Origin: an uncultured delta proteobacterium | GTDB lineage: Bacteria > Desulfobacterota > Binatia > UTPRO1 | Direction of reading: 5' to 3' | DNA length: 64,000 nt | Assembly: GCA_963761995.1 (NCBI GenBank) | Contig: CAVXIU010000006.1 | Coordinates: 3,681,684 to 3,745,683 of the forward strand | In this document: positions 6,962 to 63,366 of the stretch, in pieces | Layout of the letters: each line of letters opens with the position of its first letter | Position numbering within the stretch: the first letter of the stretch is position 1 | Position numbers and translations under genes: made by a program | Notes under the pieces: generated by a model | Databases searched by the model: none | What the model was told of the DNA's origin: nothing | Seen by the model: only the letters and a program-made list of their open reading frames with translations

Positions 6962-7423
6962 GTGCTCTCCCTGCTCGTTCACGCCGCGCTCGGCGCGCTC
7001 ACCGTCTGGATCTTCTTCCGTTTGAATGCCCACCTCTACCGGAACGACTGGCCGGGCTCCGGGGCCACGCCGCTCGAGGGCCTCTACTACCTGCTCGCGA
7101 TCGTGTCGGTGGTCGCCGGCTGGTACTTCAACGTGCGCTACGTCTTCGGCTACCCCGCCGAGTACAGCTGGACGCACTTCACCGCGATGCTCTTCGCCAA
7201 CCCGGCGGCGGGGTCGGTCGGGCAGGACATGATCATCACCAACGTGCTGCTGTTCCCGCTCTGGACGATGATCGACGGGCCGCGGCGCGGCCTCCGCGGC
7301 ACCTGGATCTACTTCGTGATGAGCCTGTTCACGAGCTTCAGCTTCGCGATGGGCATGTATCTCGCCGCGCAGGAGCGGCAGGTGCGCTGGCTCGCGGCGC
7401 GGGGGTCCGATTCCCGACCGTGA
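6962..7423 (+). CDS. Hypothetical 4-TM membrane protein.
   Basis: Starts at GTG. 153 aa with four hydrophobic helices and good GC3. Confidence 0.5.
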   Translation: MLSLLVHAALGALTVWIFFRLNAHLYRNDWPGSGATPLEGLYYLLAIVSVVAGWYFNVRYVFGYPAEYSWTHFTAMLFANPAAGSVGQDMIITNVLLFPLWTMIDGPRRGLRGTWIYFVMSLFTSFSFAMGMYLAAQERQVRWLAARGSDSRP

Positions 7424-9026
7424 CGTCATCGTCGTCGGCGCCGGCCACAACGGCCTCGCCGCGACGGCCCTCCTCGCGGCGCGTGGGCTCCGCGTGCTCT
7501 GCCTCGAGAAGAACGCCTACGTCGGCGGCATGGCGGGGACGCGCGAGATCCTGACCGGCTGCCGGAACGACGTCGGCGCGAGCCTGCTCTTCCCGCTCGC
7601 CAAGGGCGTGGCCGAGGAGCTCGAGCTCGCCCGCTACGGCGTCGAGCTCATCGACCTGCCGATCATGGCGTCGAACCTGAACTCGCCGACCTCGCCGCCC
7701 GCGATCTTCTACGCCAACCCGCTCCGCATGGCGCTCTACGTGCTCCGCCACTTCGGCGTGCGCGCCATGGCGGGCTTCGTGCGCCTGATGGCGTTCTGCA
7801 AGTACCCGGCGAGCGTCATGGACCGCTTCACGCCGCGAAGCGTGCCGCGCACGCTCGCCGAGCTGCTGGCCGCGGCACCCGACGACGCGCAAGCGCCGGC
7901 AGCTCGAGCTGGCGTTCACCGGCAGCGCGATGGACCTGATCGACCGCTTCCTGCCCGACCGGCGGCGGCATCGGACGCTCCGCGCACTGGTCGCCTTCGC
8001 CGCCGTGCAATCGACCTACAAGGGACCGTTCACGCCCGGAAGCGCGCTCTGCCTCGTCTACACCTTCGCGCAGAACGAGGGCGGCGGCCTCATGCGGCGG
8101 GTGAAGGGCGGCATGGGCTCGTTGTCCGAGGCGCTCGCGCGCTCGATCGCCGAGAAGGGCGGCGAGGTGCGGCTCGAAGTCGCCCGTCAGGCGCGTGCTG
8201 ATCGAGGACGGGCATGCGGTGGGCGTCGAGCTCCGCGACGGCAGCGCGTCTGACCGCACGCGCGGTGCTCTCCAACCTCGACAAGCCGGCGACCTTCTTC
8301 GGCCTGGTCGGGCGCGAGCACCTCGACGCCGCGACCATCGATCTCATCGAGCGCGTCGAGCAGCGCGGCGCCTACGTACACCTGCTCTTCAAGCTGAAGC
8401 GTCTGCCGCGCTACGGCCCGCCCTTCGAGCACCTGAACGCCGACCCGCGGACGCGCTTCAACACGACGCTGGTCCCCGACCCCGAGCTGCAACAGGCGAG
8501 CTACGAGGCCTGCCGGCGCGGCGAGGTGCCGGAGCACCCGCCGGTCGGGATGCAGATCCCGACGGTGATGGATCCGAGCCTCGCACCCGCAGGCTTCCAC
8601 ATCGCGACCACCTACGGCTTCTTCTTCCCCTGCGAGGCGCCGAAGGAGGAGCGCGGGCGGCTCCGCGACGAAATGGCCGAGCGCATCCTCGACCGCCTCT
8701 CCGAGTTCCTCCCCGACCTCCGCGACTGCATCGTCGAGCGCGCGGTCTTCTCGTCGGAGCACTTCGCGACCATGCAGGGGGCGACGAACGGCGACTTCAC
8801 GCACGGGCTGATCCATCCGGAGCAGATGATCGGCGGACGGCTCCTGGTACCGGGCTCGGCGCACGCGACGCCGATCGCGGGGCTGTATCTCTGCGGCGCG
8901 TCCTGCCATCCGGGTCCGGGCGTGACGTTCCTGCCGGGGTACGGCGCCGCCTACGAGGTGGCGGAGGCGTTGGCGCGCCCGCCGCGCGCGGCGGAAGAAT
9001 CGGTCACTCGGGCGGCGGCGGTGTAG
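7419..9026 (+). pseudogene. Phytoene desaturase family (CrtI-like) FAD oxidoreductase, disrupted by at least 3 frameshifts and lacking an in-frame start codon.
   Basis: The dinucleotide-binding motif DVIVVGAGHNGLAATALLAARG is in frame 0 with no ATG/GTG/TTG upstream. The CrtI-like sequence continues in frame 1 (7930-8190), then frame 2 (~8195-8240), then frame 0 (8214-9026). Confidence 0.6.
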
Positions 9027-10330: not shown

Positions 10331-10498
10331 CTAGTGTCCCGTCCCGGAACATCGCCGCATGATTCTACGGGTCTTTTCAGCCCTGCCCGCGTTGCTCCTC
10401 CTCGAAATATTCGCTGAATATTCCTTCGTCGTCGCGCCTCGGCAGGGCTGAAAATCCCTCGCAGCCTCATGCGGCGATTTTCCGAAACGGGACACTAG
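10331..10498. repeat. Nested imperfect palindrome (~168 bp) between the ABC permease stop and the ubiB start, with a relatively AT-rich centre.
   Basis: The outer 32-bp arms are ctagtgtcccgtcccggaacatcgccgcatga and tcatgcggcgattttccgaaacgggacactag. The inner arms are ttttcagccctgcccg and cggcagggctgaaaa. The central palindrome is gaaatattcgctgaatattcc. Confidence 0.6.
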
Positions 10499-11286
10499 GC
10501 GATCAGCCTGCGCTCCACCCAGCGGACCGCGAGCCCGTAGGTCGCCGCCAGCACGAGCAGCAGGACGGCGACGTGCGCGAGGCTGGCGACGCCGACGGTG
10601 CCGGTGACGCAGGCCCGGCTGAGCGCGACCGCGTGGGTGAGCGGCAGGCACCAGGCGGCCGCCTGCGCCCACGCCGGCAGGCTCGCGAGCGGGAAGAAGA
10701 TGCCGGAGAGGAAGTACATCACCGAGATGACGAGGGTGAAGTAGTAGGTGAAGAAGTCGTAGGCGCGGGCGCGCGACGCCACCGCGAGGCCCATGCTGGC
10801 GAAGACGAGACCGATCAGGAGGGCGACCGCGGGGAGCAGCACCGCCCACCCGCTCCGCACCAGGCCGGCGCCGGTCGCGACCAGCAGCACGGCGGTGCCG
10901 GAGAGCGTCGCCTTGGAGGCCGCCCAGAGCGCGTCGCCGGCGACGATCTCGCGGATGCCGAGGGGCGTCGCCAGGATCGCGTCGTAGGTCTTCTGCTCGG
11001 TCATGCGGGTGAACGAGCCGAAGGTGGCCTCGAAGCTCGCCGCGTTCATCGCCGCCGAGGCGAGGATCCCGGGCGCCAGGAACTGCGCGTACGTCCCGCC
11101 CGCGCCGCTCGGGTCGATGTCGACGAAGCGGCCGAGCCCGTAGCCGATGGCGAGCAGCGACAGGATGGGCTCGCCGAGCGCGCCGACGAGCGACGCTTTG
11201 TAGTACTTCCGCCAGCTCTCCATGTCGCGGCGCCAGACGCGGAGCGCGCCGCCGACGAAACCGATGGGAACGGTGACCGTGCTCAC
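10495..11286 (-). CDS. ABC-2 type transporter permease.
   Basis: Six TM helices. Its GTG start overlaps the ATPase stop as GTGA. The start could instead be at 11223. Confidence 0.8.
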   Translation of the reverse strand: MSTVTVPIGFVGGALRVWRRDMESWRKYYKASLVGALGEPILSLLAIGYGLGRFVDIDPSGAGGTYAQFLAPGILASAAMNAASFEATFGSFTRMTEQKTYDAILATPLGIREIVAGDALWAASKATLSGTAVLLVATGAGLVRSGWAVLLPAVALLIGLVFASMGLAVASRARAYDFFTYYFTLVISVMYFLSGIFFPLASLPAWAQAAAWCLPLTHAVALSRACVTGTVGVASLAHVAVLLLVLAATYGLAVRWVERRLIA

Positions 11287-12230
11287 TCCCGCAGCTCCCG
11301 CCCCGTGAGCGTGAGGAAGACGTCCTCGAGCGTGGCGCGGCGGTGCACCAGCTGCTCGCCCGCGAGCGCCGCCAGCGCGTCGCGCGGCTCGGTGCGGCCG
11401 TTCAGGTAGAGGATGACGTGGTCGCCCACGCGCTCGACCCGGCCCCCGAGGCTCCGACAGGTGGCCGCGATCCGCGCCTCGGCCACGGGATCGCCGGCGG
11501 TCGCGACCTCGATGACGTCGTGGCCGACGTGCTCGGCGATCAAGGCGGCGGGCGTGCCCTCGGCGATGATCCGCCCGTGGTCCATGACGATCAGGCGATC
11601 GCAGAGCTGCGCCGCCTCCTCCATGTAGTGGGTGGTGAGCAGCATCGCGACGCCGCTGCGCTTGAGCTCGCGGAGGCGCTCCCACACCAGGTGTCGCGCC
11701 TGGGGATCGAGGCCGGTGGTCGGCTCGTCGAGGACCAGCAGGCTCGGGCGATTGAGGAGCGCGCGAGCGAGGACGAGGCGGCGCTTCATCCCGCCGGAGA
11801 GCGTGTCGATGCGCGAGCCGGCCCGATCGCCGAGCTCCGCGAACGCCAGCAGCTCGGCGGCGCGGGCGCGGGCGTCGGACCGTGCGAGGCCGAAGTAGCT
11901 GGCGTAGACGAGGAGGTTCATCTCGACCGTGAGATCGGGATCGAGGTTCTCCTCTTGGGGCGCGATCCCGAGCCGGGCCTTGATGGCGCGCGCATTGCCG
12001 GGGGTCACGGGCATGCCGAAGACGGCGAGGCTGCCGGCGGTCGGCGGCGAGAAGCAGGTGAGCATGCGGATGGTGGTGGTCTTGCCGGCCCCGTTCGGAC
12101 CGAGGAGACCGAAGCACTCGCGCGGGCGCACGACGAAGTCCACACCGCAAACGACCTCGTGCTTGTCGTAGCGTTTGCGTAGCCCGACGGCCTCGACGAT
12201 CGGCGCCTCCACCCCGACCTGACGTACCAT
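11283..12230 (-). CDS. ABC transporter ATP-binding protein.
   Basis: Walker A (GPNGAGKTT), ABC signature (LSGGMKRR), Walker B (LLVLDEPTTGLD) and the H-loop are all present. Confidence 0.9.
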   Translation of the reverse strand: MVRQVGVEAPIVEAVGLRKRYDKHEVVCGVDFVVRPRECFGLLGPNGAGKTTTIRMLTCFSPPTAGSLAVFGMPVTPGNARAIKARLGIAPQEENLDPDLTVEMNLLVYASYFGLARSDARARAAELLAFAELGDRAGSRIDTLSGGMKRRLVLARALLNRPSLLVLDEPTTGLDPQARHLVWERLRELKRSGVAMLLTTHYMEEAAQLCDRLIVMDHGRIIAEGTPAALIAEHVGHDVIEVATAGDPVAEARIAATCRSLGGRVERVGDHVILYLNGRTEPRDALAALAGEQLVHRRATLEDVFLTLTGRELRE

Positions 12231-12305
12231 AGAGGTTGACGCGGCACACCTCGGCGCAGAGCCGGGCGTGCTCAACTCCTTCCAAGGGGATGCCGTAAAT
12301 GCTCC

Positions 12306-12959
12306 ATGATGTCGGCCCCCGACCGGTCGACGCGCCTCGCGCGCGCCGCCCTCGCGATCCCATTGCTGTACGCGCTCGGCGGCGAAGCGGCGCTCGCGGG
12401 CGGAACGGCGATCGTCGAGACCTCGCGGCGCCCCGACGTCGCCGTCGTCACCTATCGCGAGGTGCAGGGCGAGATCGGCGACGCCGATCGCGGACCGGTG
12501 CTGCAGATCTTCGGCGACGGCCGGATGGTGACGCACTACCCGCGCTACATGACGCGCGCCGGCGACTGGGAGCAGCGGCTCGCGCCGGGCGAGCTCGACG
12601 GGCTGGTGCGCTCGCTCGCCGCCAAGGGCGTGCTCGAGTTCGACGCCGCCGCGGCACGCGGCGCCAAGCGCGCCGCCCTGACCGCGGCGCGCCAGCGCGC
12701 GCAGGCCGGCGCAGGGCCGGTCGTGGTGTTCGAGGCCACCGACGCCGCCACCACCGTGATCGAGGTCGCCGCCCTGCGCTACCAGGCGGCGAGCCCGGGG
12801 GCGCGCGCGGCGCTCGACGTCACCCGCCGCGCCGTCTGGACCGGGCTCCGCCACGACGCCGAGCATCACCCCGACGTCACGGCGCTCCGCGACCTCGCGG
12901 CCGCCGAGCAGGAGCTGCGCGCGCTGCGCGAGCGCCCGGGCTTCACCCGGGTGCGCTGA
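12306..12959 (+). CDS. Hypothetical secreted protein.
   Basis: N-terminal signal peptide, 217 aa. Its stop overlaps the next ATG (TGATG). Confidence 0.5.
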
Positions 12960-15562
12960 TGGCGCCGGTCCGCCGCCGGCACTCGGCCCGCCGGCGCGCG
13001 CTCGCCGTCGCGCTGGCGGCCGCGCTCGTGATGGCGAGCGTGCCCCGCGCGGCACGCGCCGGCTCCTTCATCTTCGCCGGCGAGGCCAACGGCGTGAACG
13101 TGGTCGCACACCCCACCGGCTACACCGGGAGCGGCGGGACCGTGAGCGTGACCGTCTGCATCGACCCGACCTCGGCCAACGCCGCGTCCATGGAGCAGTC
13201 GGTGCGGAACGTCGTCACGACCTGGAACGCGCTCTCGGCGACGAGTCCCAACCTGCTCTTCGAGGACGACAACAACATCGGCTCGGCCCAGATCGATTTC
13301 GAGTCGACGGCGCTCCACGAGGTCGGCCATTGTCTCGGCCTCGGACACCCCAACATCTCGACCGAATCCCTGCTCTCGGGCAGCGACCTCAATTACACCA
13401 AGTCGACCGACGGCGCCGACAACGTCTACAACCGCAACGCGGGGGCCGACGGCATCATCGGCTCGAGCGACGACGGCCGCGGCGACGACGCGAACCTGCA
13501 CTGGTTCCGGAGGTCCAACGACGACCCCTTCACCCTCGCCGCCACGGTCGACGGCAGCACCTACAGCCGCACCGTCGGCGATCTCCCCGCGGGGCACACC
13601 TTCCCCGCCAACGCCGACCGCACCGTCGCGGCGCTCCTCGGCTACGACGACACCGAGGCGGTGATGCAGCAGGGCGCCTTCGGCGACGAGGACCAGCGCC
13701 ACGTCGCCGCCGACGACGTCGCGACGCTGCGCCTCGGCATGAGCGGCCTCGACATGACGGCGGGCACGGCCGACGACTACACGATCGCGCTCAGCTACGC
13801 CGGGCTCACCACCAGCTGCAACATCGTGCTCGATTTCGACAACGCCCAGACCGGCTTCGCGCAGTGCAGCGCCAACGGCGTCTTCCTGAACGGCACCCAC
13901 ATCGCGATCACGACCGCCAACGTGTACTTCAACGCCGGGTACAACTGGTTCTTCAACAGCGTGGTCGCGCCGTCGCCGACCCCGACGCTGTCGCCGACCC
14001 CGACCCGCACCACCACGCCGACCCCGACCACGACCGCCACCCGCACGGCGACGCCGACCCCGACCCGCACCACGACCCCGACGCCGACACGGACGGCGAC
14101 GCCGACGCGGACCGCGACGCCGACCAGGACCGCCACCCCAACCGCGAGCGCCACGCCCACGCGCACCGCGACCCCGACCGCGACCCCGACGGCGACCGTC
14201 ACCGCGACCGCCACGCGCACGGCGACGCCCACCGTCACGGCGACCGTGACGGCCACACCGACCGCGACCGAGACCGCCTCGCCGACGTCGACCCCGAGCC
14301 CGACGCTCACCACCACGCCGACCCCGACCGAGACCGCGAGCCCGACCCCGACCCTGAGCGCGACGCCGACCGAAAGCCCGAGCCCCACCACGACGCCGAC
14401 GCCGACGGCGACGACCACCACGACGCCGACCCCGACGCTCACCGCCACTCCGACCGCGACCGAGACACCGACGCCGACGCTCACGGCGACCGCGACCCCG
14501 ACCCCGAGCGCGACGCCGAGCCCGACCCCGAGCCCGACGCCGACCGCGACGCCGTCGGCAAGCCCGACGCTGACCCCGACGCCGCACGCCACCTGCACGC
14601 CCGCGCCGACGCCGGCGGCGGAGTCGCCCGTCACGAGCGGCGCCGCCAAGTGCAAGCGCGGGATCGCGAAGCAGGCGTCGAAATTCCTGGCGCTCGAGAC
14701 CAAGGCGCTCGAACGGTGCGACCAGGCGACCGTCAAGCAGGGCGGCGCCGGTCCCTGCCCCGACGCCGCCGCGACGGCGAAGATCGCGCTCGCCGCGAGC
14801 AAGCTCGCGACCGCCGTCGGCAAGGTGTGCGGCGGCGCCGACAAGCAATGCGGCGGCAACCTCGCCGGCGAGGAGTCGCCCGCGGGCCTCGGCTGGCCCG
14901 GCGTCTGCCCGAGCTTCGGCGGGTCCACCGATCCCGCGTGCACGGCCGCGATCGGCGATTGCGCCGACATCGCCGCCTGCATCGCCTGCGTCGGCGGCGC
15001 CGCCGTCGAGGGGGCGCGCGCCCTCGCCTACGACGATCTGGTCCCGAGCGTCGCCGCGCCCGCGCTCAACAAGTGTCAGCGCGCGATCGGCAAGGCCACC
15101 GCCCGCTTCGCGCTCGCCAAGGAGCAGCGCCTGCGCTCGTGCTGGGACGCGCGCGCCGCCGGCAAGCACGGCGAGCGCTGTCCCGATGCCGCCGCGGCGG
15201 CCGGTAGCCCGGCACAGAAGGCCGCGCTCGCGATCGCCAAGGCCGACGCCAAGCGGGTCGTCACCATCTGCAAGGCCTGCGGCGGCGCCGACAAGGCCTG
15301 CGACGACACGGTCGTGAGCCCCGGCGCGGTCACCGTCGCCGGCAGCGGCGGCAGCGACGACCTGACGCCCGCCGCGATCGGCTTCCCCGCGACCTGCCCC
15401 GCCGTGCAGCTGCCCGAGGGCGGCGCGTCCTGCGACCGTCCGATCGCGACGCTCGCCGACCTGATCGAGTGCACCGCCTGCATCGCCGACCACGAGGTGC
15501 TCTGCGTCGATCGCCTGCGGGTGCCGCAATTCACGGCTTACCCCTGCGAGTGCCGCGGTTAG
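12959..15562 (+). CDS. Secreted metzincin zinc metalloprotease with a ~210-aa Pro/Thr linker and a duplicated Cys-rich C-terminal domain.
   Basis: Signal peptide, then [11 protein letters not shown] (HExxHxxGxxH), then the PT-rich region, then two copies of a CKRGIAKQ.../CQRAIGKA... cysteine-rich module. 867 aa. Confidence 0.8.
13960..14610 (+). repeat. Low-complexity coding repeat (TPTPTxTAT)n encoding the Pro/Thr linker of the metalloprotease.
   Basis: Visible ~9-18-bp periodic ccgac[cg]ccgac units. It also produces spurious antisense ORFs. Confidence 0.7.
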
Positions 15563-18500
15563 GAACCGCCCCCAGCCCCCAGTCCGGCGAAACGCGCGCG
15601 TGCGGCGTCGAGGTCCTCGAGCTCGAAGAGCTCGACGCCGGCGAGTCGGCCGCCCTCGGGAAACCAGATGAGGGTGACGAACACCGACTCGAACTCCCCC
15701 CCTTCGGGCAGCATGCCGACGGTGTGGGCGACGCAGAGATGCCCATGCGGCTCGATCGCGAGGTAATAGAGCGGCATGCCCACCGACGCATCGCGCGACA
15801 GGTCGTACAGTGCCCGCAGCGCCGCGAGATACGCGTCGGCTCCCTCGATGCGACCGAGGCCGGTCCGGCGGTGATCGTCGAAGACGAAGTCGGCACGCAT
15901 GCCCGCCCGCATGCGCTCGTGGTCGCGATCGCGAAACGCTCGGGCGGTGTCCGCGACCAGCGGCGGGAAGGCGCTGCGCGCCGAGCGCTCGAAGAGCTCC
16001 GCATCGGCGGCGCGGCGGTCGTGGGGATCGAAGATGACGTTGCCGATGAAACGACCCTCCCCGTCCACCTCGTTGATCTCGAGACACTCGACCTCGGAGG
16101 TCTGGCCTCCATTCCCCGCGACCCAGACCATGCGCTGCAGCGACAATCGATCGCCGGCGGTGGCAAGCACGGTACGCACCGGGCGCACGCCGGACTCCCA
16201 GATGTGGCGGTCGTTCGCGATCGACATCTCGCGGTCGACCGCCATGTGCATCAACTGGCGACGATCCTCTGCCGTACACCCCGGCGCGTACAGCGCCCCC
16301 ACGGCCTCCCAGTCCCCCGCCTTCGCAACCTCGTACCAGCGATCGAACGCGCGCGTCGCCGCGTTCGGCGGGATGCGGAGCGGGTCCGGGCGGAGCTCGG
16401 CGAGGCGCGCCAGGGCGCTGTCGACGTCCTCGAGCTCGAACATCTCGAGGCGCGTCATGCGACCGCCCGTCGCCGTGCAGAGACAGAGAAGGTCGCGCTC
16501 GGCGGAGCGCCGGAGCGTGAGCAGGACGCCATGGCGCTCGATCATGGGCCAGAACCAGCCGAGCTCGAGGCGATGGTCCGGTGAGCGCCCCCAGAGGGCC
16601 GTGATGCCGTCGATGCAGGCTGCGGCGCCCTCGATCCGAGCGATGCCCGTCCGGCCGTGATCCTCGACGACGACGTCGTCGCTGACGAGGGCCCGCAGGC
16701 CGGCCCGATCGTGCGCGTTGAAGCCGTCCGCGATCGTCCCGACCATCGCCGTCCACGGCGCCGCCACGGGATCGATGGCGCTCCACCGCGCCCACGCCTC
16801 GCGTTGCGCGGCGCGGGTGTCCTCCGGATCGAAGACGATCACGGCCGTGGCGCGCTCGCTCTCGTCGACCTCGATCACCGCGAGGAACTCGATCTCGAAG
16901 CGGCCGTCGGCCGGCCCGCCCGACCAGAGTACGCGCTGGACGAGCACGCGCTCGCCCGCCGTCCCCATCACACGGCGCTCGACGCGGGCGCCGGCCTCCG
17001 CCCGCTCGCGCATCGACGAGAGCGCCAGGTCGAGCCCGCCGGCGAGCTGGAAGAAGCGCCGCCGATCCTCCCACTTCACGTCGGGTGCGTAGCCCGCGCG
17101 CAGCGCGTCCCAATCACGGGCGTTGAACGCCGCCTGCCAGCGCTCGGCGAAGGCGGTCGCCGCGGTGGGCGTCACCACGGTCGCAAGCGGATCGGATGCC
17201 GGCGCCGCGCCGAACGCCTCGGCGCGCGCGTCGAGCTCGTCGTAGGCGGCGCTCCGATCGTCGAGATCGAACACCACGAGCACCGTCCGCCGGCCGGCCG
17301 CGTCGACCTCGACGAGGTCCAACGCCTCGACCTCCATCGGGCCGCTGCCGCCGACCGTCGCGGTGAAGCGGACGCGGAAGAGCGCGAGACGCTCGCCGCG
17401 GGTCGCGAGCAGCTCGCCCTGCCATTGGCTCGCGGTATCGTCGAAGAGCATGCGCTCGTTGGCGAAGAAGGCGTCGCCCGCGACCTCGACCCGCATCAGG
17501 CGGCGGCGGTCGTCCATGCGGTGCGCGGGGTGATAGGTCGCGCGGACCCCGTCCCAATCGCGCGCTCGCCAGGCGCGCTCGAACTCGCGGAGCGCGCGCG
17601 ACGCCGCGTTGGCGAAGGGCTCCGGCAATGCGCTGCCGGTCAGGGCCTCGAGGCGGGCCAGGGCCTCGGCCTCGCGGTCGGCATCGAAGGCCTCGTAGTG
17701 GCTCACCCGACCGTCGTCACCGAAGACCCAGAGCGAGACATACGGCACCTCGAAGATTCCGCCGCCAGCGCGGTCCTTGCCCGACATGGTCGCCCGCCTG
17801 ACCAGGGCTCGCGCCTCGAGGCGCAGCACGTCGTCGGTCACCTCGACGACGTCGTCGGCGAGATCGAAGAGCGCGCGTGCGCCGCCGACCAGTGCATCGA
17901 CTCCGCGCCCCGCCCCCAATCCCAGGACGCGATGGTCGTTGAACTCGACCGCGGGCGCCAGCGCCGCCGCGAAGCCCGCGAGGCTCGGACGACGGGCGCC
18001 GATCCCCGCCACCGACCGGGCGACCGCCATCGCGCGAGGACGGTCGGACTCGTCGGGAAGCAGCTCGGCATGACGTGCGTACGAGCGAATGACGGCGTCC
18101 CCCAGGTGGTCGCCGGCGAAGATCTCGATGCGTCGCACGCAGCCGTCGCGATCGACCTCGAAGCCGACGATCTCCTCGCGCTCGTACTCCCCGACGTCGA
18201 AGCGGCCGCCGGCGGTCCCCGCGGCATGGATGCGGCGGCGCCAGAGCACGAGGGACTCCCCGAGCGTCGCCAGCGGCTCGACCCGCAGCGTCGCATCTTG
18301 CATGCGCCGCAGCCTCGCCAGCGACTGGAGCTGCCCCTCGCGCCCGTAGGAGGCGCCGTTCGGATGATCGACCACCTCCAAGGCGTCGCCGAAGAGCGCC
18401 GCGAGGGCGGCCGTATCGCCGGCGGCGAACGCGGCCTCGAAGCGGCAGAGCGTCGCGCTCGCGGCGTTCGGAGCCACCCCACGCCGCACCGGCCGCGGCG

Positions 18501-21500
18501 GCGCCGCCGTCAGCGCCTCGAAGCGGGCCAGCGCCTCGGCCTCGCGATCGCCGTCGAAGACCTCGTTGCAAATCAGGAGGCCGTCGCCGTCGAACGCCCG
18601 GAGCACGAGGCGCGGCACCTCGAAGGCTCCGCCGCCGGCGCGGTCGGTCCCCTCGCCCATTGCACGAACCAACAGCGCGCCGGGCTCGAGCCGGACGAGG
18701 TCGAGGACTCGCACGGCGGCATCGTCGGCGAGCGTCGTCAGCGCGACCGCGCGCGCCGTCGCCGCGGCTCGACGACGCGCCTGGCCGGCGGGGAGAAGCT
18801 CGGCGTAGAGCTCGTAGAGACGGGCGACGGCGGCGCCCGGATGGTCGGCCGCGAACAGCTCGACCCGCCGTAGCCGCCCGCTCGCGTCGACCTCGAGCAG
18901 CGTGAGGTGCTCGCGCTCGACGGCCCCGAAAGGCCCGAACGACTCGTCGCCGAAGGCCGTGAAGGAGCTGGTCTCGCGCTCCAGCAGCAGGGCGTCGCCG
19001 AGGGTCGCGAGGGGCTCGCTGCGGAACTGCAGGTCGCGCGCGCTCGCGATCTGACCGACGAGCGTCAGCACCTCGGCGCGCCCCCACGACGTGCCGGTCG
19101 GATGGTGCACGCTCACGTGGTCGTCGGCGAGCAGCTCGCCGAGGGCGTCGACGTCGGGGGTGACCCTCGCCGCCGCGAACCGCTCGGCGCTGGCAGTGGC
19201 CGCGTTCGGGCGGACGCGGCGTCGCGGCGGCGGCACCCGCGCGCTGGCGTCGCGGCCCGGTTCGCGCGGCGTGCTGCGGAGCGCCCGTTCGACGAGCAGC
19301 GTCGCGCCCTTGATCTCCCACAGCTCCGTCGCCCGCCGCTCCTCGGCATCGGCCTCGCCGCCGCGGCCCGCGGCACGGAGCGCCGCGGCGAGGGCGAGAC
19401 GCGCATCGGCGTGATCGAGAAGCGCATCGGTCGCGGCCGCGATCTCGACCGCCGTGCTCGCGAGCGCGACCGCGGCCGCGTGCTCGCCGCGCCGCGCCAG
19501 GGCCTCGGCGCGGACGCCGCGCCAGGCGATCGCGGCCTGGAGATCGTCGCCCGCGAGCGCCTCGCTCTCGTGGCTCTGCGCCTCGGCCTCGGGCACGCGG
19601 TCCAGCGCCAGCAGCGCCCGCGCCAGCAGCGCCCCGGCCCGTGCCGCGTCGATCCCGAGGCCGATGTCGCGGAGGCCTTCGTAGGCGCCGCGCAGGCTCC
19701 GCTCGGCGGCACGCGCGTCGCCCACCAACAGGTCGACGCGGCCGGCGAAGACCTCGATTTCGAGCAGGCGATGCGTGATGCCGATCTCCTCGACCATCGC
19801 ACGCGCCGACGCGATCATGTGGCGGGCGGCGTCGGTGCGACCGCGGAGCGCCTCGAGCACGCCCTGGCAGCTGAGCGCCACCGCCTCCACCACGGGCGCC
19901 CCCTGCGTGATCCTGAGCACCCGCACGACGTCGAGGCAGCGGCCGCTCGCGCGTGTCACCGGACTCGGTCCCCACAGCGCGGCGAGCGGCGCACCGGCGA
20001 GGACGGCGTTGGCGCGGCGCCGATCACCGGCGCGGCGAGCCGCGGCGAGGGCGCGGTCGAGTGCCGCCTCGGCGCCGCCGATCTGGCCGAGCCGCGCCAG
20101 CGCCTGCGCGTGCACCGCGTGCGCTTTGGCCTCGCCGGTGGCGTCGCCGAGCGCCGTCAGCGTCTCGGCGGCCGCGGCGACCGCGTCGACCGTGGCCGTG
20201 AGCCCCTCGGGAGCGGTGAGCGCGGTACGCTGGCCGGTGAAGCAGGCGTGCCACGCCCGCAGGCGCGCCGAGTCGGCGGTGAAGCGGGCGAGCTCGTCGA
20301 TGGCCGCGCCCGCCGGCCCGACCTCGCCGGCGGCGAGCAGGGCCTCGCACCAGTCGAGGGCGAGGCCGGCGCGGGTCGGGTCATTGGGCTCGACCCGCTC
20401 GATGGCGCGCCCGAGGAGTCCCGCGGCGAGGCGGACATCGTCGCGTGCGAGCGCCCGCCGTCCGGCGGCCGCGAGATGGCGCGCCGCCCGGGCGCCGAGC
20501 AGCCGCCCCTTGTCGTCGAGCGGCCCGAGCTCGCGGAGATGCTGGTGGGCCTGCTCGAAGTGCCAGCCGATGGTCTCGTCGTGCTCGACGGCCTCACCCA
20601 CACGCGCCGTCACCCAGTCGGCGACCCGCGCGTGCAGCTCGGCGCGCGTGCCCTTGAGGAGCCGGCGGTACGCCGCGTCGCGGATCAGGACGTGGTGGAA
20701 GCGCCAGGCCGGCTCGCCCAGGAACCGGCCGGCGTCGCGCTCGACGAGCTCGCCCCGCCGGAGCGCCTCGAGGCGGGCATCGAGATCGTCCGCCTCGTCT
20801 CCCAGCAGCTCGGCGACGGCGCTCCGCGAGAAATGCCGGCCCACGACCGCGGCTCGCTCCAGCACCGTCCGCTCCTCCGCGCGCAGGCGCTCGATGCGGG
20901 CGGCGAGGAGCGCGTGGATGGTGGGCGGCATCGCGAGCGCCGCGAGGCCGGCGCCGACGATCCAGCGCTCGCCTTCGCGCAGCAGCGCGCCCTCGTGGAC
21001 CAGCATGCGGACCAGCTCGCCGACGAAGAGCGGGTTGCCCTCGCTGGTCGCGAGCACCTTGGCGGCGACCGCCGCCGGCAAGTCCGCGGCGCCGATCACG
21101 CTGGCGGCGAGCCGCGTGGCCGCCCCGGCGTCGAGACCGCCGAGCGTCAGCACGTCGGCGACGAGGCCGCCTTGGGTCGTGAGCGCCGCGCGCGCGTCGC
21201 GGAGCTCCGGGCGGGCGCCGACGAGCACGAAGACCGGCACGCCGCCACCCCACTGCACGAGGTGCTCGACGAGATCGATGAGCAGCGGCTCGGCCCAATG
21301 CAGATCGTCGATCACCAGCACCACCGGCCGTACGGAGGCCAGCGCGGCGAGCAGGCGTCGCGCCACGGAGAAGGTCTCCTCCGGCGATCGCGGCGCCCCG
21401 GTGAGCAGCTCCGTCGTGCCGGCGACGATGCGCGCGCGGTCGGCTTCGGCGTGCGGGAGCGCCGCCTCGAGCGTGCTCCGCAAGACGTCGGCACCGGCGC

Positions 21501-21855
21501 CATCGTCGAGGCGGAGCCACCCACGCACGGCGTCGGCGAGCGGCGCGAAGGTCGCCCCGCCGGCCGCTTCGCAGTGCGCGGTGAGCACCGTCGCGGCGGC
21601 GTCGAGACGGCGCGCCAGCTCGCCGATCAACCGCGACTTCCCGAGCCCGGGCGAGCCGAGCACGACCGCGAGCCGGGTGGCGGGAGCGCCGACGGCCGCA
21701 TCGTAGACGGCCTCGAGACGCGCCAGCTCGCCGTCGCGTCCGACGAACGGCGTCGTCGCCGCCCCCGCCGGCGGCTCGAGCGACACCACACGATACACCG
21801 CCACCGCCCCGGCGCGCCCCTTGAGCGTCACGCTGCCGAGCGGCTCGAGCGTCAC
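15559..21855 (-). CDS. Giant signalling protein body: STAND/AAA ATPase, a helical/TPR-like region and about 9 tandem NTF2/SnoaL-like domains. It is the C-terminal 2,098 aa of an adenylate/guanylate cyclase gene.
   Basis: Walker A ([10 protein letters not shown]) follows the tail of the cyclase domain ([15 protein letters not shown]). Repeated ~120-aa units carry the pattern W/F..A...DWDA...Y.PD...D.RR.... Confidence 0.8.
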
Positions 21856-22432
21856 GCAGCGTCGCCACCAACCGCCGCGTCGCCTCGCCGATCAGCACGT
21901 CGCCGTCGCGTCCTTGCTCCTGCAGGCGTGCCGCCACGTTCACCGGGTCGCCGATCAGCTCGGTCGCGTCCTTCGCCACCACCTCGCCGGTGTTGACGGC
22001 GACGCGCAGCCCGGTGGCGCCGACCACGGCGCTCTCCGGCTCGGCCAGTGCGCGAAAGGCCTCTTGCATCGCGACCGCCGCCCGGACGGCGCGGATGGCG
22101 TCGTCCTCGGCGACGCGCGGCACCCCGAAGACGGCCATCACGCCGTCGCCGAGGAGCTTCGCAACGGCGCCGCCGTGCGCGGCGACGGCCGCGCCCATCG
22201 CCGCGTAGTAGCGCTCCATGAAGGCCCGCGCCGACTCGGCGTCGAGGCGCTCGTGCAGCGCCGTCGAGCCCACCAGGTCGGCGAAGACGATGGTGACGAC
22301 CTTGCGGCTCTCGACGGTCGCCGCGACACCCGTCGCCGGGCGGTCGCCGACCCGCGCCCCGCATTCGAGACAGAACTTGGCGCGCTCGGGATTGGCGTGG
22401 CCGCAGGCGCCGCAGGTCATGCCGTGCCCCAC
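21856..22432 (-). CDS. N-terminal zinc-ribbon plus class III nucleotidyl cyclase domain of the same gene, separated from the body by a +1 frameshift at ~21860.
   Basis: CGACGHANPERAKFCLECG zinc ribbon. Cyclase motifs IVFADLVGST and KLLGDGVMAVFG. The reading frame changes within gacgctgcgtgacgctcgag, an apparent 10-bp near-duplication. Confidence 0.6.
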
Positions 22433-22649: not shown

Positions 22650-23927
22650 TTACCCGGGTGCAATCTCCTCCAGCTCGCGGTGCGCGGTTTCCGGGAGCGC
22701 GAGCAAGGCGATCGGCACCAGCGCGAGCGGCAGCACCATCCAACTGATGGCGCTGCCGTGGCTGCCGGTGAGGGTGTAGAGCGGCCCCTCGAGCGCGAGG
22801 CCCGCGGCGGCGCCGACGGTGGCCGTCACCGCCCGGACGGCGGAGGCCGTGGCACGGTGCGCGGTGGGGAAGAGCTCGCTCCCGAGCGCGCTCAGCATCA
22901 CGTCGAGCCCGAGGTACGCGACCACCATGACGAGCCAACCGACGATGACCCACGGGCCGGCGCCGCGATAGAGCACGAGCGTGCCGGCGGCGGTGAGCAC
23001 GAGCGCGGCGAGCGCCATCGGCTTCCGCCCGATCCGGTCGCTGATGCGACCGACGCCGAGCTGGGCGGCGACGCTGAGGCCGCCGCCGACGAAGTAGAGG
23101 ACCGCGACCGTCGCGGGGCCGTAGCCGTGCGCCTCCTGCAGGAACTTCGACTGGAACGTGATCGCCGGCGCCGTCAGGACGTAGATCGGGAAGATCATGG
23201 CCACCAACGCCAGCACGCGGCCGGGATGCCGTTGCACCAGGGTCACGAGCGGCGCCAGCACGGGGGTGTCGGTGCGCGCATGGCTGGCCTGGTGATCGAG
23301 GAAGCGTCGGGTCTCGACGAGGCTCCGGCGGAGCCACGCCACGATCGCGAGCGGCACGCCGGCCGCGAGATAGAGGAGCCGCCAGCCGAGCGGCCCGTTG
23401 CCGACGAGCGCGAAGCTCACCGCGGCGAGGCCGTGGCCGACGCCGCCGAGCGCCGCCAGCACGCCGAGCCCGAAGCCGCGGCGCGCCGCGGCCAGCTCCT
23501 CCGCCACCACCACGATCGCGAGCGTGTCCTCGGCGGCGATGAAGACGCGCGCGAGCAGCTGGACGGCGATGAAACTGGTTGCGTCGGGCACGCCGGCGGT
23601 CGCCACGGTGCAGATCGTGAAGCCGACGATGGTCGCGAGCAGCAGGCGGCGGCGCCCGTAGCGGTCGGCGAGCACGCCGAGCGCGAGGGCCGGCAGCGAG
23701 CCCAGACGGATGACGGCGAGCATGGCCCCGACGCCGGTCTCGGCGATCCCGAGTGTGGCCTGGATCGCCGGCAGGGCCAGGGTGATGATCGCGAGGTCGT
23801 AGCCGTTGACGGCATTGGCGGTGCCGAGGAGAGCCAAGAGTCGCCACTCGCCGGCGGTCACGTCACGCGGCAGGAGGGCGCGCCACCCGTCGCGCCGCGG
23901 CTGGCTGGTCGAGCCGGCGCGCGTCAC
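22650..23927 (-). CDS. MFS transporter.
   Basis: Twelve predicted TM helices and the MFS motif GVLADRYGRRR. Its GTG start overlaps the rsmI stop as GTGA. Confidence 0.8.
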   Translation of the reverse strand: MTRAGSTSQPRRDGWRALLPRDVTAGEWRLLALLGTANAVNGYDLAIITLALPAIQATLGIAETGVGAMLAVIRLGSLPALALGVLADRYGRRRLLLATIVGFTICTVATAGVPDATSFIAVQLLARVFIAAEDTLAIVVVAEELAAARRGFGLGVLAALGGVGHGLAAVSFALVGNGPLGWRLLYLAAGVPLAIVAWLRRSLVETRRFLDHQASHARTDTPVLAPLVTLVQRHPGRVLALVAMIFPIYVLTAPAITFQSKFLQEAHGYGPATVAVLYFVGGGLSVAAQLGVGRISDRIGRKPMALAALVLTAAGTLVLYRGAGPWVIVGWLVMVVAYLGLDVMLSALGSELFPTAHRATASAVRAVTATVGAAAGLALEGPLYTLTGSHGSAISWMVLPLALVPIALLALPETAHRELEEIAPG

Positions 23928-24769
23928 TCGCGGGCGAGCCTGAGCGCAAGCCGATAGACGGCGCGGCGGGCAAGCCCGCGTTCGCGCACCAGGGCATCGA
24001 CGACGTCGCGGACGCTCTGACCGGCGGCGCGCCGGCGGTGGATCTCCGCCGCGAGCGCGGCGTCGTCGTCGAGGTCGCCCGCCGCCGGCTCCGGCTCGGG
24101 TCTGCCCGCGACGCCGATCACGATCTCGCCCTTGGTCGTCAGCCGATCGGCGCGCGCGGCGAGCGCCGTGAGGTCGTCCCGCACGATCTCCTCGTGGAGC
24201 TTGGTGAGCTCGCGCCCGAGCGCGGCCGGGCGCGGCCCGAAGGCCGCCGCCAAGTCGGCGAGCGCGGCCCCGAGCCGGCGGCCGCTCTCGAAGAAGACGA
24301 GCGTGCGGGGCTCGCCCGCGAGCTCCGCGAGCCGCCGGCGCCGTTCGGCGGCGCGGGCCGGCAGGAAGCCCTCGAAGACGAAGCGATCGGTCGGGAGGCC
24401 CGAGGCCGGGAGGAAGGCGGTGATCGCCGACGGTCCCGGGATCGGGACCACCGCCACACCGGCGGCGATGGCGCCCGCGACCAGGCGATACCCCGGGTCG
24501 GCGATCCCCGGGGTCCCGGCGTCCGAGACCAGCGCCACCGAGCGTCCGGCGACGAGCGCGGCGACGAGAGCGGGCGCCCGCTCGCTCTCGACGGCATCGT
24601 AGTAGCTCCGGAGCGGGCGGGAGATCCCGAGATGCTGGAGCAGGCGCCCGGTCCGCCGGGTGTCCTCGGCGGCGATGAGGTCGACCCGCTTCAGGGTCGC
24701 GACCGCTCGCGCCGTCAGGTCCTCCAGGTTCCCGATCGGGGTCGCCACCAGGTAGAGGGTTCCCGCCAT
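23924..24769 (-). CDS. rsmI: 16S rRNA (cytidine1402-2'-O)-methyltransferase.
   Basis: Tetrapyrrole-methylase fold with LYLVATPIGNLEDLT and AEDTRRT. Confidence 0.9.
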   Translation of the reverse strand: MAGTLYLVATPIGNLEDLTARAVATLKRVDLIAAEDTRRTGRLLQHLGISRPLRSYYDAVESERAPALVAALVAGRSVALVSDAGTPGIADPGYRLVAGAIAAGVAVVPIPGPSAITAFLPASGLPTDRFVFEGFLPARAAERRRRLAELAGEPRTLVFFESGRRLGAALADLAAAFGPRPAALGRELTKLHEEIVRDDLTALAARADRLTTKGEIVIGVAGRPEPEPAAGDLDDDAALAAEIHRRRAAGQSVRDVVDALVRERGLARRAVYRLALRLARE

Positions 24770-24910
24770 CCGACCCCGGCGTAGCTGTCACGGAACGCGG
24801 ATGGTCACAACCGGCGGGCCGCGGCGCGGGGCGCGCCCGAGACCCCCGTTTCGAGCTGACGCACCGCCCCAGCAGAACGCCAAAAACCCACGAGATGCAT
24901 GCGTTTTTCC

Positions 24911-52861: not shown

Positions 52862-54344
52862 ATGGTCGCCGGCGGAGTAGCGCCTTCGCCCTCGACGGTC
52901 GCGATCGACCGGCTGGGATTTTTTCGTTGGGGACGGATCGCCGAGAAAGTCCTGATCACGACGGATGGCGGCGACTGGGCCTTTCTGACCGAGCCGGAGT
53001 TCGCGCAGCTGCTCGCTGGCGAGATCCTGGAAGACCACCCGCGGTTCGCTGAGCTCCAGGGCGGCGGCTTTCTCCGCACGGGCCTCGATCTCGACGCGCT
53101 CGCGAGCAGGGTCGCACGGCAGCGTGGGCCACGTCGCGCGCGGGCCGGAGCTGCACGTCGTGACGATGAGCCGCCGCGCCGGGCAGGAAGCTCCATCGGC
53201 GGCGCCCGGCGCGCCCGCATGGACCTCGACCGCGAGACGGCCGAGAGGATCGTCGAGGTCGCGCTCCAGAGCAGATCGCCGTCGGTCTCATTCGAGCTGC
53301 AGGCGGCACGCCGGCGAGCCGTTGCTGAACGCCGACGGAGTCCGGCATCTCGTCGAATTCGCGCGGACGACGAACGCACGCGCCGAGGGGAAGACGCTCG
53401 GGTTCACGCTCGTCAGCAACTTGAGCGCCATGACGGCGGAGATGGCGGAGTGGCTGATCGCGAACGAGGTCGCCATCCGGACGTGGCTCGACGGACCGGC
53501 ACGAGCTCCACGAGTGGAACCGGAGATACACGTTGGCGGGAGCGCATGCGGACGTGGTCCGGTGGATCGAGTGGTTCGACCGCCGATACCGCGAGCTCGG
53601 GCTCGATCGCCGACGTCTGGCACGTCGACACAAGGATGACGACGACGCGCCGGACGCTGTCGGCCTGGCGCGAGGTCGTGGACGAGTACGTGGCGCGCGG
53701 GATGCGGTCCATCCAGCTCAGGCCGCTGAGCCCGCTCGGCTTCGACGCCGACGCGTGGCAGACGATCGGGTACACCGTCGAGGAATACCTGGCGTTCTAC
53801 GACCGCGCGTTCGGCTATATTGTTGGAGTTGAATCGCAGCGGGGTGCGCCTCGCCGAGAGGACGGCGTCGGGGTTCCTGAACGGCATCCTGTCCTCCGGG
53901 GATCCCGCCCTGCGGGAGATCCGGTCGCCGTGCTCGGCCGGGACGAGCGAGCTCGCATACGACGTCGATGGGCGGATATTCCCGGGCGACGAGGCGCGGC
54001 GCGTCGACGCGTTCGGGGATCCCATCTTCGCGCTCGGCAACGTGCGGGAGCTCAGGATCGCCGACATCGTCCGGCATCCGACGGCCCGGGCGATTGCGGC
54101 GGCGTCGCTCCTCGACGCGCAGCCGATGTGCGCGGACTGCTGGAACAAGCCGTTCTGCGGCATCTCGCCCGTGTCGACGTACGTCCGGGACGGGGACCTC
54201 TTCGGGCAGCGGCCGCGGTGCTTCGAGTGCAAGGAGCATATGGCGGTCTCCCGCACCCTGTTCGCTCGGCTGGCAAACGAGAGCGACCGGGAGACGAAGG
54301 AGATCCTCGAGCGCTGGACGGCCGGAAGCGGCCGCCCGCGCTAG
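52862..54344 (+). pseudogene. Radical SAM/SPASM maturase, HxsB-like, with an N-terminal KVLITxDxGDW extension. At least 4 frameshifts and the Cx3Cx2C motif is lost.
   Basis: The frame order is 2 -> 0 (FELQ|GEPLLNADG, caused by a 7-bp insertion cacgccg) -> 1 (WLDGPA|ELHEWNRRYTLAG) -> 2 (IADVWHVDTR...YDRAFGYIV) -> 0 (SPASM: SPCSAGTSELAYDVDGRIFPG, CADCWNKPFCG, RPRCFECKE). The expected Cys-motif region reads LHVVTMSRRAGQE. Confidence 0.6.
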
Positions 54345-59386: not shown

Positions 59387-60790
59387 ATGCCGCGTTTCCT
59401 CTTCATCAATCCGCCGCTCGTCCTCGAGGACGACTTCATCGACTACCCCTTCTTCGCCAATCACGGGTTGCTCGCGTGTGCGGGGTTGGCGGCGCGGTCG
59501 GGTGCGGACGTCGCGGTGCACGACGCGTTCGCGTTGCGCGACTCGGGACGTCACCGCCGCGCCGGCGGGGGATGGGTGCTCGGCGTCGGGCACGACGAGT
59601 TCATCGCGTCGCTGCCGCGCGGCCGCTTCGACGTCGTGGTGCTCGGCGGCCCGGTCTTCCTCCGCATCGAGGCCGCCCATGCGGAGACCCGCGCGCTCAT
59701 CGCCGCCCTCCGCGAGCGATTTCCACGCTCCGTCCTGCTGCTCGCCGACGGCTACGTGGGCGGCCAGCACTACGCCGACTACGACGCCGAGCGGGTCCTC
59801 GCACAGTATCCGGAGTTCGACGCAATTCTGAAATACCCCGGCGAGCGCTTCTTCGCCGAGCCGGAATATCTCGCGACCCTCGGCGACGCGCGCGTCGTGT
59901 TGCGCGAGGCGGAGAGTCGCGGTGCCGATCCGCTCGAGCCGTTCTACTTCCTCGACGGCATCGACGTCGGCAACTTCGATCGCTTCCTCGAGCGCTGCTT
60001 CGGCGACGGGACGTGGCAGAACACGTTCGGCGTCGGCGCGGGGACGCGCTCGTTCGTGACCAGCATCGGCTGCCCGCATCGCTGCATCTTCTGCACGAGC
60101 AACCCGGGCTGGCGACGGACGGGACGCAAGCTCTACCGGCCGATCCCCCTGCCCCGCCTCACGCACTGGGCGTATCTCCTGCAAAACCGTATTCGCCGCG
60201 AAAAAGCTGATCGTGCTGGACGAGATGGTGAACGTCCGGACGGACTTCGAGGCGATGCTCCGCATGCTGAACGAGCTGGACTTCACCTACGATTTCCCGA
60301 ACGGCATGCGCGCGGACCATTTGAGCCGCGAGGCGATCGGCGCTGATGAAAGGACGCGTCGGGATGCTGAGCATCTCGGCGGAGAGCGCGACGCAGGAAG
60401 ATGTGAACGGACCCATCGGCAAGGGGCAGCCGCTCGACGCGATCCGACGCGTCGCGGAATGGTGTCGCGAGCTCGACGTGCCGCTGATGAGCCACTACAT
60501 CATCGGCTTCCCCTGGGAGACGCCGGCGCACGTCACCGGCACGCTCGAGATGGCGTGGGAGCTGTACGAACGCTACGGGGCTTGGCCGTCGATGCAGTTC
60601 GCGACCCCGATTCTCGGCACCGCGCTGCACGAGCAGTGCGTGTCCATGGGTCTGATTCCGCCTGAAGGCATCGACCTCAAGGACGGCGCGCTCTTCCAGC
60701 ACCGCCCGTGCTTCGATCCGCCCGGCCTGTCCCCCGGGGTACCTCGAGAAGGCACGCGCCGCGTTCGACATGAAGATCGCGGCCCGTGAG
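59387..60790 (+). CDS. B12-binding-domain radical SAM protein (class B-like), with at least 3 frameshifts.
   Basis: N-terminal cobalamin-binding-like fold (MPRFLFINPPLV...). SFVTSIGCPHRCIFCTSNPGW (Cx3Cx2C). It continues in frame 0 (KLIVLDEMVNVRTDFEAMLRMLNELDFTYDFPNGMRADHLS), then frame 1 (LSISAESATQEDVNGPIGKG...IIGFPWETPAHV), then frame 2 (YLEKARAAFDMKIAAREAQQ). The true stop is unclear. Confidence 0.6.
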
Positions 60791-62659: not shown

Positions 62660-62664
62660 GGACG

Positions 62665-63123: not shown

Positions 63124-63366
63124 CGTCGAGCGATACGGACGTAGTGACGATCCGCCTCCATCGGATGCTGTACACGGAAGAAGCAATCGCCGAGGCCGCG
63201 ACCACGTTCGCCGGACTGGCATCGTTCGCCGTCCGTGCCGACGGCGAGCACCACGTCGTGGACGTCAGCGCGATCACGCGCGACGTCGACGGTGACGTGG
63301 TCGCCGAGTTCTGCAATTTCGCGCTCGCGAACTCGGCGCGCGCTGAGCGGAGCGGTCATGCTTGAC
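63120..63366 (+). CDS. Small protein family B, copy 2.
   Basis: 81 aa. ATGA overlap with family A copy 2. LYTEEAIAEAATTFAG...AEFCNFAL aligns with copy 1. Confidence 0.6.

Follow-up and report, generated by a model that had tools for sequence, protein, structure and literature searches.

One gene for a putative STAND-type cyclase with an array of paired NTF2-like domains, probably split by an assembly error, in an uncultured bacterium of the Binatia

A coding region of about 6.9 kb on the minus strand of a contig from an uncultured delta proteobacterium (class Binatia; assembly GCA_963761995.1, contig CAVXIU010000006.1, positions 3,681,684 to 3,745,683) raises the question of whether it holds one working gene or the remains of one, as its reading frame changes once, near position 21860 of the 64,000 nucleotides analysed here (hereafter the window). 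A sequence-only reading had described the region as encoding a protein of about 2,300 amino acids (aa), composed of a zinc ribbon, a class III nucleotidyl cyclase, a STAND ATPase, helical repeats and about nine NTF2/SnoaL-like domains, and had attributed the break to a slipped 10-bp duplication. The list of open reading frames (ORFs) and their translations bears out the coding region and its single break; the cause given for the break does not hold. Taken as a whole, it is likely that the region is one gene for a cytosolic, signal-transducing cyclase of the STAND type and that the break is most probably an error of the assembly.

The break in the reading frame

The N-terminal frame starts at 22420 or 22432 and is coding as far as about 21857, beyond which it yields Arg/Ala-rich nonsense down to 20594, and the second frame, ORF-B (2098 aa, minus strand), extends from 21855 down to the stop codon at 15559-15561 and is 100% identical to a database protein (P0001) found by protein search. 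The two frames join at ...GEATRRLVATL, which continues in ORF-B, and the product after repair of one base is 188 + 2098 = 2,286 aa long, in agreement with the size first estimated. The frame is open as far as 22432, as had been noted, but the GTG at that position is not the favoured start; the ATG at 22420 ('MTCGACGH') is more likely, since homologues begin 'MxCxxCGH'.

The lesion is a single extra base. In a DNA alignment with 14 homologous loci, every locus shows a single one-column gap opposite the extra base of the window, the extra column sitting inside GCGACGCT[G/C]CGTGACG at 21856-21859. It is equally possible that the surplus base is the T of CTG, the removal of which gives ATRVTLE as in some homologues. 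At the protein level 62 homologous loci are gap-free at this site, seven homologues read RLV[AS]x[LR]VTL[EA]PLGS across it, and the removal of a single base restores the homologue sequence exactly. As assembled, the cyclase ends at position 154 of the 183 in the PF00211 profile, and the complete C-terminal strands of the domain are found only once one base is removed; the repaired cyclase aligns end to end with the solved adenylate cyclase CyaB (3r5g; 1.7e-20) with a gap-free junction, and the same is true at the junction for 2w01.

A tandem duplication of 10 bp, whether it is supposed to have recently inactivated the gene or to act as a reversible phase-variable switch, is refuted as the cause by the alignment of the homologous loci. 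The hexamer GACGCT is indeed present twice, 10 bp apart; however, the decamers in question (gacgctgcgt and gacgctcgag) are identical at 6 of 10 positions, and Tandem Repeats Finder returned no row at the break site. The repeated hexamer also provides the codons for both T-L pairs of the conserved peptide ATLVTLE, which is found in homologues that have no frameshift, and removing 10 bp would drop L-V-T, leaving a protein 3 aa shorter than all 62 gap-free loci and without residues that are also present in solved cyclases. A search for repeats near the break found only imperfect in-frame ones, with spacings of 24 and 18 nt. One of these, an imperfect direct repeat at 21813-21860 with 24-nt in-frame spacing that encodes the similar peptides VTLEPLGS and VTLKGRAG, is unrelated to the break.

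Phase variation would require a homopolymer or short-repeat tract, and the context of the break (...GCGACGCTGCGTGACGCTC...) has neither. Programmed ribosomal frameshifting was rejected as well, as the site lacks a slippery heptamer and all homologues examined there are single-frame. As homopolymer, short repeat and slippery heptamer are all absent, neither phase variation nor programmed frameshifting is supported, and the inactivation or switch first proposed gives way to a single base in a window with many such breaks.

The extra base is, with good confidence, an artefact of the assembly; it would then be absent from the genome itself, and most likely the organism makes the full 2,286-aa protein. 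At least seven further single-base frame breaks, of both signs (+1 and -1), interrupt unrelated genes in the same 64 kb, counting only junctions that divide a family profile or that a profile bridges once the frames are joined. This background corresponds to about one break per 6-8 kb, so that about one would be expected in a gene of 6.9 kb, which makes indel noise of the assembly the best reading of the break. The breaks counted (Table 1) include three frame switches in an FAD-dependent amine-oxidase/CrtI-like gene, which gives one PF01593 stretch (profile positions 3-423 of 443) only with its frames joined, and one in each of four radical-SAM genes, which match HxsB or HxsC4/HxsC as single stretches only when their frames are joined. 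The break near 62017 cuts through a radical-SAM domain, one frame covering profile positions 3-88 and the following frame 93-159, and the first HxsB-like gene must contain further breaks since its radical-SAM core is out of frame. Searches of PDB sequences with the separate pieces of the FAD oxidoreductase were uninformative.

A similar pattern is seen in related loci: the N-terminus is split between frames in 3 of the 13 loci that come from Nanopore-only 'MFD' metagenome-assembled genomes (MAGs), compared with none of the 67 other loci. The MFD MAG assemblies received a single round of Medaka polishing (PMC12313526). The three split loci (L049, L050 and L054) are broken within the first 1.6 kb, and L049 has 9 stops in the matched stretch.

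Alternatively, the extra base could be real, a recent single-base insertion that has made the gene a young pseudogene; its products would be a 188-aa zinc-ribbon/truncated-cyclase fragment with an out-of-frame tail and a 2,098-aa STAND/NTF2 remainder that is possibly untranslated. We regard this as unlikely, but some features of the locus do weigh against an artefact. The extra base lies outside a homopolymer, the classic context of long-read errors, and the argument for an artefact is statistical and not direct. In addition, the copy is short and eroded, with only half of NTF2-like module 2, no partner for module 5, a loss within module 7 and a single zinc ribbon, and this erosion would also fit relaxed selection; it falls in the family's shortest class, with three lineage-specific deletions that include the loss of half a domain, and as the family is multi-copy in related genomes the loss of one paralogue could be tolerated. 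However, the other breaks of both signs lie in unrelated and otherwise well-conserved genes, and so many simultaneous fresh pseudogenes are implausible in one genome, here carried on a contig of about 7 Mb. There is no second lesion across the 6.9 kb, the G+C content at third codon positions (GC3) is steady at 0.90-0.93 over the entire gene in a GC3 frame plot, and the larger indels are all in frame. The in-frame character of the larger differences from the closest relative (P0103), together with the uniform GC3, suggests that the reading frame is under selection. At about one indel per 6-8 kb, any gene in this window that might be called a pseudogene or a phase switch needs support from reads first.

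Architecture of the predicted protein

The order of zinc ribbon, class III cyclase and STAND ATPase given by the sequence-only reading is confirmed by the Pfam scan and by the catalytic and NTPase motifs. The four Cys of the zinc ribbon are invariant in an alignment of 27 sequences, and most homologues have a double zinc ribbon whereas the window copy has a single one. Two homologues (P0052 and P0069) carry sterile alpha motif (SAM) domains (PF00536, PF07647) with no zinc-ribbon family listed, and the N-terminal module thus appears to be exchangeable within the family. The cyclase is recognised from the N-terminal frame alone (PF00211, Guanylate_cyc, 7e-17, 62 bits against a cut-off of 21.9), and a profile built from 27 relatives matches solved adenylate cyclases at 4e-39. 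All six catalytic positions are retained (D48, K88, D92, T144, N161 and R165). The metal-binding Asp residues D48 (FADLVGST) and D92 (LLGDGV) and the transition-state pair N161 and R165 (GDPVNVAARL) align with the same residues of CyaB 3r5g and are invariant in the alignment. The substrate-specifying residues K88 and T144 stand opposite the K and T of CyaB in the alignment, and as this specificity pair is kept the residues suggest an adenylate cyclase, with cyclic AMP (cAMP) as the probable product.

The AAA_16 domain is followed just downstream by a GNPLF (GxP) motif, which would correspond to the GLPL motif of NB-ARC proteins, and contains a Walker A motif (GSPGLGKS) and a Walker B motif (VVLVIDD). 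G255, G258, G260, K261, D371, D372, P463, L464 and F465 are invariant among 27 relatives, down to 40% identity. A single-sequence search found no solved relatives of the NTPase region, and when solved structures were searched with the profile of the 27 relatives, the best 60 of the 77 matches were all cyclases. The helical repeats proposed to follow the NTPase are upheld as a helical region; the signal for repeats is weak, the match to TPR_12 being sub-threshold (E 0.0018, 18.8 bits against a cut-off of 30.1). The repeats found in classical STAND proteins (TPR, WD40, LRR) are here replaced by NTF2 modules.

About nine NTF2/SnoaL-like modules had been counted, and this holds up with a profile of our own and with Pfam, an AlphaFold model and Foldseek bearing out the fold of the last two. 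Comparison of the protein with itself, together with a profile grown from one module, gives nine modules of about 120-135 aa each over ORF-B residues 883-2085. For the whole protein, SnoaL_2 (PF12680) matches at 1.4e-28 (99.9 bits against a cut-off of 27) in 5 stretches and DUF4440 (PF14534) at 53.8 bits. When scored singly, eight of the nine modules match Pfam families of the NTF2 clan at E<=0.06, modules 3, 6 and 7 exceed the gathering score and module 2 has no Pfam match. An AlphaFold model of modules 8 and 9 (the last pair, for which 37 sequences were aligned) has two NTF2-like cones, with a predicted local distance difference test score (pLDDT) of 94.1 and a predicted template-modelling score (pTM) of 0.88. 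Each of the two modules shows the helix-helix-strand...strand pattern in the model, the remaining modules being tied to them by homology only, and in a Foldseek search each half hit ketosteroid isomerase and SnoaL-like chains, with a probability of 1.0 and a TM score of about 0.7 on the target. In most modules the first strand ends in a charged D-[RH]-R-R motif, and B-type modules have GG-x-FE; in the 37-sequence di-domain alignment D45, R46, R47, D175, R177 and R178 are invariant or nearly so.

The unit of the array is a di-domain made of an A and a B module. The A/B alternation is maintained across proteins, array length varies by whole A+B cassettes, and the module counts of 120 homologues are overwhelmingly even (12, 14, 16, 18, 20). 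Equivalent modules of different proteins are up to 79-86% identical, against 27-50% among the modules within one protein. In the window copy the modules follow the order A B A B A A B A B, which makes four A+B pairs, one of them with a truncated B, and one orphan A module. Three in-frame deletions separate it from its closest relative, P0103. Module 2 is a half-module as some 45 N-terminal residues are gone (also relative to module 4 and to homologues), and what remains shares 50% identity with the corresponding part of module 4. The entire B partner of module 5 is missing (at about 17170-17244) and is present in P0103 and P0003; module 5 itself shares 79-83% identity with its counterparts in P0059 and P0103. 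Module 7 lacks about 10 aa, which include the conserved GG-FE motif.

Table 1. Positions of the gene, its domains and the other frame-broken genes of the window
Feature	Position	Strand	Basis or remark
Whole gene	15559..22420	minus	ORF list and translations; stop codon 15559-15561
Zinc ribbon, single, CxxC...CxxC	22352..22414	minus	Pfam Zn_Ribbon_1 2.9e-5, DZR 4.3e-5
Class III nucleotidyl cyclase catalytic domain	21772..22312	minus	PF00211; frame break falls inside
Frame break, one extra base	21856..21859	minus	GCG ACG CTG [C] GTG ACG CTC; DNA alignment, 14 loci
STAND-type P-loop NTPase core (AAA_16)	21253..21750	minus	PF13191, 9.5e-20, 72 bits (cut-off 32.6)
Helical arm/repeat region between NTPase and NTF2 array	19246..20868	minus	weak TPR-like signal
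NTF2-like module 1 (A)	18829..19209	minus	own profile; DUF4440 4.9e-5, SnoaL_2 5.9e-5
NTF2-like module 2 (B, truncated)	18532..18828	minus	own profile, C-terminal two-thirds only; no Pfam match
NTF2-like module 3 (A)	18094..18471	minus	DUF4440 32.6 bits (above cut-off), SnoaL_2 5.9e-5
NTF2-like module 4 (B)	17662..18036	minus	SnoaL_2 8.3e-6
NTF2-like module 5 (A, orphan)	17245..17613	minus	own profile; SnoaL_2 0.063
NTF2-like module 6 (A)	16807..17169	minus	SnoaL_2 33.6 bits (above cut-off)
NTF2-like module 7 (B)	16414..16770	minus	SnoaL_2 31 bits (above cut-off)
NTF2-like module 8 (A)	16006..16368	minus	SnoaL_2 6.5e-4; AlphaFold, Foldseek
NTF2-like module 9 (B)	15601..15975	minus	SnoaL_2 3.1e-4; AlphaFold, Foldseek
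FAD-dependent amine-oxidase/CrtI-like gene	7380-9026	plus	frame switches ~7882, ~8178, ~8248
HxsB-like radical SAM gene	52862-54344	plus	break ~53822
HxsC4/HxsC-like radical SAM gene	60774-61705	plus	break ~61305
HxsC4/HxsC-like radical SAM gene	61657-62656	plus	break ~62017
Second HxsB-like radical SAM gene	63316 to past window end	plus	break ~63550

The gene is flanked in the window by genes for an MFS transporter and a tetrapyrrole methylase and by a convergent ORF. Of the many same-strand changes of frame suggested by the GC3 plot, two were rejected as frameshifts on the basis of Pfam: that at 10495-12230 lies between two genes, an ABC ATPase and an ABC-2 permease, and that at 22653-24787 between the MFS transporter and the tetrapyrrole methylase. 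The convergent ORF (1087 aa, plus strand, 12299-15562) has only a weak match to the Peptidase_M10 zinc site; at about 13945-14661 the GC3 signal shifts to another plus-strand frame, and a minus-strand ORF at 13795-14982 also has high GC3, and the gene structure at 12299-15562 may include more frame breaks. The radical-SAM genes form a cluster of the His-Xaa-Ser type (52862-54344 and 60774-64000, plus strand). An Rfam scan of the window gave no match.

The family and its known relatives

A search with the whole protein found 1246 proteins at E<=1e-10, and the best 120 of these, for which the architecture was described, all have the zinc ribbon, cyclase, AAA_16 domain and NTF2 array; they are 1,948-3,996 aa long, have mostly 12-20 modules and are about 50-60% identical. 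A search with the di-domain gave 1512, 923 and 380 representative clusters (at 50% identity) at E<=1e-3, 1e-10 and 1e-30, respectively, and the longest match is a protein of 5,200 aa with 15 matched di-domain stretches. Database names go no further than 'nuclear transport factor 2 family protein' or 'class 3 adenylate cyclase/ketosteroid isomerase-like protein', and a literature search for the zinc ribbon-cyclase-STAND-NTF2 architecture found no relevant paper. This is a large family in uncultured soil bacteria, undescribed as far as could be found, in which the window copy counts as short and somewhat eroded, among the shortest known to us in these searches. The NTF2 array had been called an unusual choice of sensor for a cyclase, and to our knowledge no characterised cyclase carries one; the description holds for characterised proteins and published work but not for metagenomes, where the 923 clusters show the arrangement to be common.

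Among species-representative genomes, all relatives with NTF2 modules come from MAGs of Binatia, Myxococcota or 'delta proteobacteria', the best match being 76% identical. In related loci, NTF2 arrays are confined to a clade with at least 58% N-terminal identity, and the cyclase-STAND proteins of Actinomycetota and Chloroflexota, which are 40-50% identical, are without NTF2 modules. Several genomes have two or three copies, some of them adjacent. One locus (L006) holds two close copies and another (L002) a second, more distant cyclase match (46% identity); L004 and L017 lie next to each other on one contig, another contig holds L019 and L045 about 11 kb apart, and several MAGs (e.g., L008/L027) carry family copies on separate contigs. 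No conserved gene neighbourhood was found when the neighbours in the window were compared with 80 loci and the ORFs of the loci were clustered all against all.

The architecture is a variant of known cyclase-STAND proteins in which the NTF2 array is new. Mycobacterial proteins of the Rv0386, Rv1358 and Rv2488c type combine a class III cyclase with an AAA_16/STAND NTPase and a helical TPR-like region, and end in a LuxR-type DNA-binding domain or in plain helical repeats; they are not known to have a zinc ribbon or NTF2 modules. The window protein resembles this type in having an N-terminal class III cyclase directly before the AAA_16/STAND NTPase and a helical region, and its relatives in Actinomycetota and Chloroflexota, at 40-50% identity, are broadly of the type too; it differs in the NTF2 arrays, which are seen only in the clade of Binatia and Myxococcota. 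In NCBIfam the cyclase-NTPase-helical core (ORF-B residues 31-614) matches TIGR03903 best, the TOMM system kinase/cyclase fusion. However, with scores of 139.3 and 53 bits, far below the family cut-off of 705.75, the protein is not a member of that family, and it has neither the kinase domain nor a TOMM gene context and its C-terminal half is unlike that of the TOMM fusion.

STAND proteins such as MalT, Apaf-1/NLRs and Avs are laid out as an effector, a P-loop oligomerisation module, a helical arm and C-terminal repeats, and induced proximity is the working model for the activation of the effector. The window protein has the same overall layout, but in place of TPR, WD40 or LRR repeats it has entire NTF2-like domains, each of about 125 aa and set in A+B pairs. 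A regulatory use of such domains has its nearest published parallel in the ECF56 and ECF41 sigma factors, which have a C-terminal SnoaL_2 extension (PMC7730460); the likeness lies in a SnoaL_2/NTF2-like domain serving as a non-enzymatic regulatory module on a signalling protein, and the difference in number and setting, with one domain on a sigma factor there and 9-30 modules on a STAND cyclase here.

Proposed mode of action and its alternatives

By analogy with MalT, Apaf-1, NLRs and Avs, we propose that the zinc ribbon and cyclase would be the output of the protein, the AAA_16/STAND NTPase and helical arm its switch, and the C-terminal array of A+B di-domains a sensor or scaffold. The array would keep the NTPase closed and monomeric until a ligand, perhaps a small and probably hydrophobic molecule in the cone pockets of the NTF2 modules or else a partner protein, bound to the modules and led to nucleotide exchange and oligomerisation. 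The active sites of class III cyclases form only at a dimer interface, and oligomerisation would thus activate the cyclase by bringing the cyclase domains together, switching on the synthesis of cAMP. The gating by a ligand, the oligomerisation and the product are all predictions. Against this model stand the sub-threshold match of the helical arm to TPR_12 described above and the outcome of the searches, which brought to light no conserved partner gene and no solved relative of the NTPase part.

The same layout of STAND NTPase, N-terminal effector and long C-terminal array, which varies from 6 to 20 or more modules, could also belong to an immune or conflict sensor similar to NLRs and Avs. 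Its variable NTF2 array would then detect phage or other foreign molecules, and the cyclase would raise the alarm with a cyclic nucleotide, in the manner of Pycsar. Such a role would be in keeping with the several paralogues per genome, some in tandem, and with the match of the cyclase domain to the Pycsar PycC models at 6e-14; we nevertheless consider it improbable. Among the PADLOC defence models only this cyclase domain was matched, with the STAND/NTF2 part finding no counterpart, and the similarity to PycC is that of generic class III homology. Pycsar systems have an adjacent gene for an effector activated by a cyclic mononucleotide (cNMP), and no such gene was found among the flanking genes, nor is any neighbour conserved across the 80 loci; the neighbours of the window copy are the transporter and the methylase, with no effector or other conserved neighbour. 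Furthermore, modules 27-50% identical within a protein and up to 86% identical between proteins are the opposite of what would be expected of a fast-diversifying receptor. As equivalent modules are more alike between than within proteins, and length changes by A+B cassettes, the sequences would point to ligands that are conserved and particular to each module rather than to a rapidly evolving immune receptor.

It could also be supposed that the NTF2 modules are enzymes, of the polyketide cyclase, epoxide hydrolase or isomerase types, and the protein a regulated multi-enzyme assembly. The best structural matches of the di-domain are indeed Lsd19 and the MonBI-MonBII epoxide hydrolases, along with ketosteroid isomerase. 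Lsd19 (PDB 3rga, 4rzm) and MonBI-MonBII (9kw6, 9kw8), polyether epoxide hydrolases from biosynthetic clusters, have two NTF2-like cones per chain and are the best Foldseek matches of the modelled pair (E 1e-12 to 4e-11). However, identity to these two is only 11-15% (11-22% over all the matched enzymes), and the whole-chain TM score of 0.36-0.39 (0.37 for the whole model), with a root-mean-square deviation of about 12.7 A, shows that the domains are packed differently. The locus has no biosynthetic gene context, and the conserved motifs D-[RH]-R-R and GG-FE are charged and differ from what we take to be the catalytic residues of the matched NTF2 enzymes. An assembly of enzymes is therefore very improbable, and the sensor or scaffold role remains the preferred one for the array.

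STAND ATPases are the shared engine of MalT, of the anti-phage Avs proteins and of animal and plant NLRs, and it is their C-terminal repeats that set what is sensed. A tentative extension of the proposed model is that the A+B pairs are a previously unrecognised sensor repeat of STAND/NLR proteins, in sets of 3 to at least 15 pairs, each pair of which may have its own small molecule or partner, so that many cues might be integrated into one cAMP output, and that it has been expanded to multiple copies in uncultured Binatia and Myxococcota. The window copy, as one of the smallest in the family, would make a practical expression construct. Some 900 or more clusters of proteins with paired NTF2 domains, up to about 30 per protein, would extend the known repertoire of STAND sensors, and the family points to unexplored cAMP signalling in abundant uncultured soil lineages.

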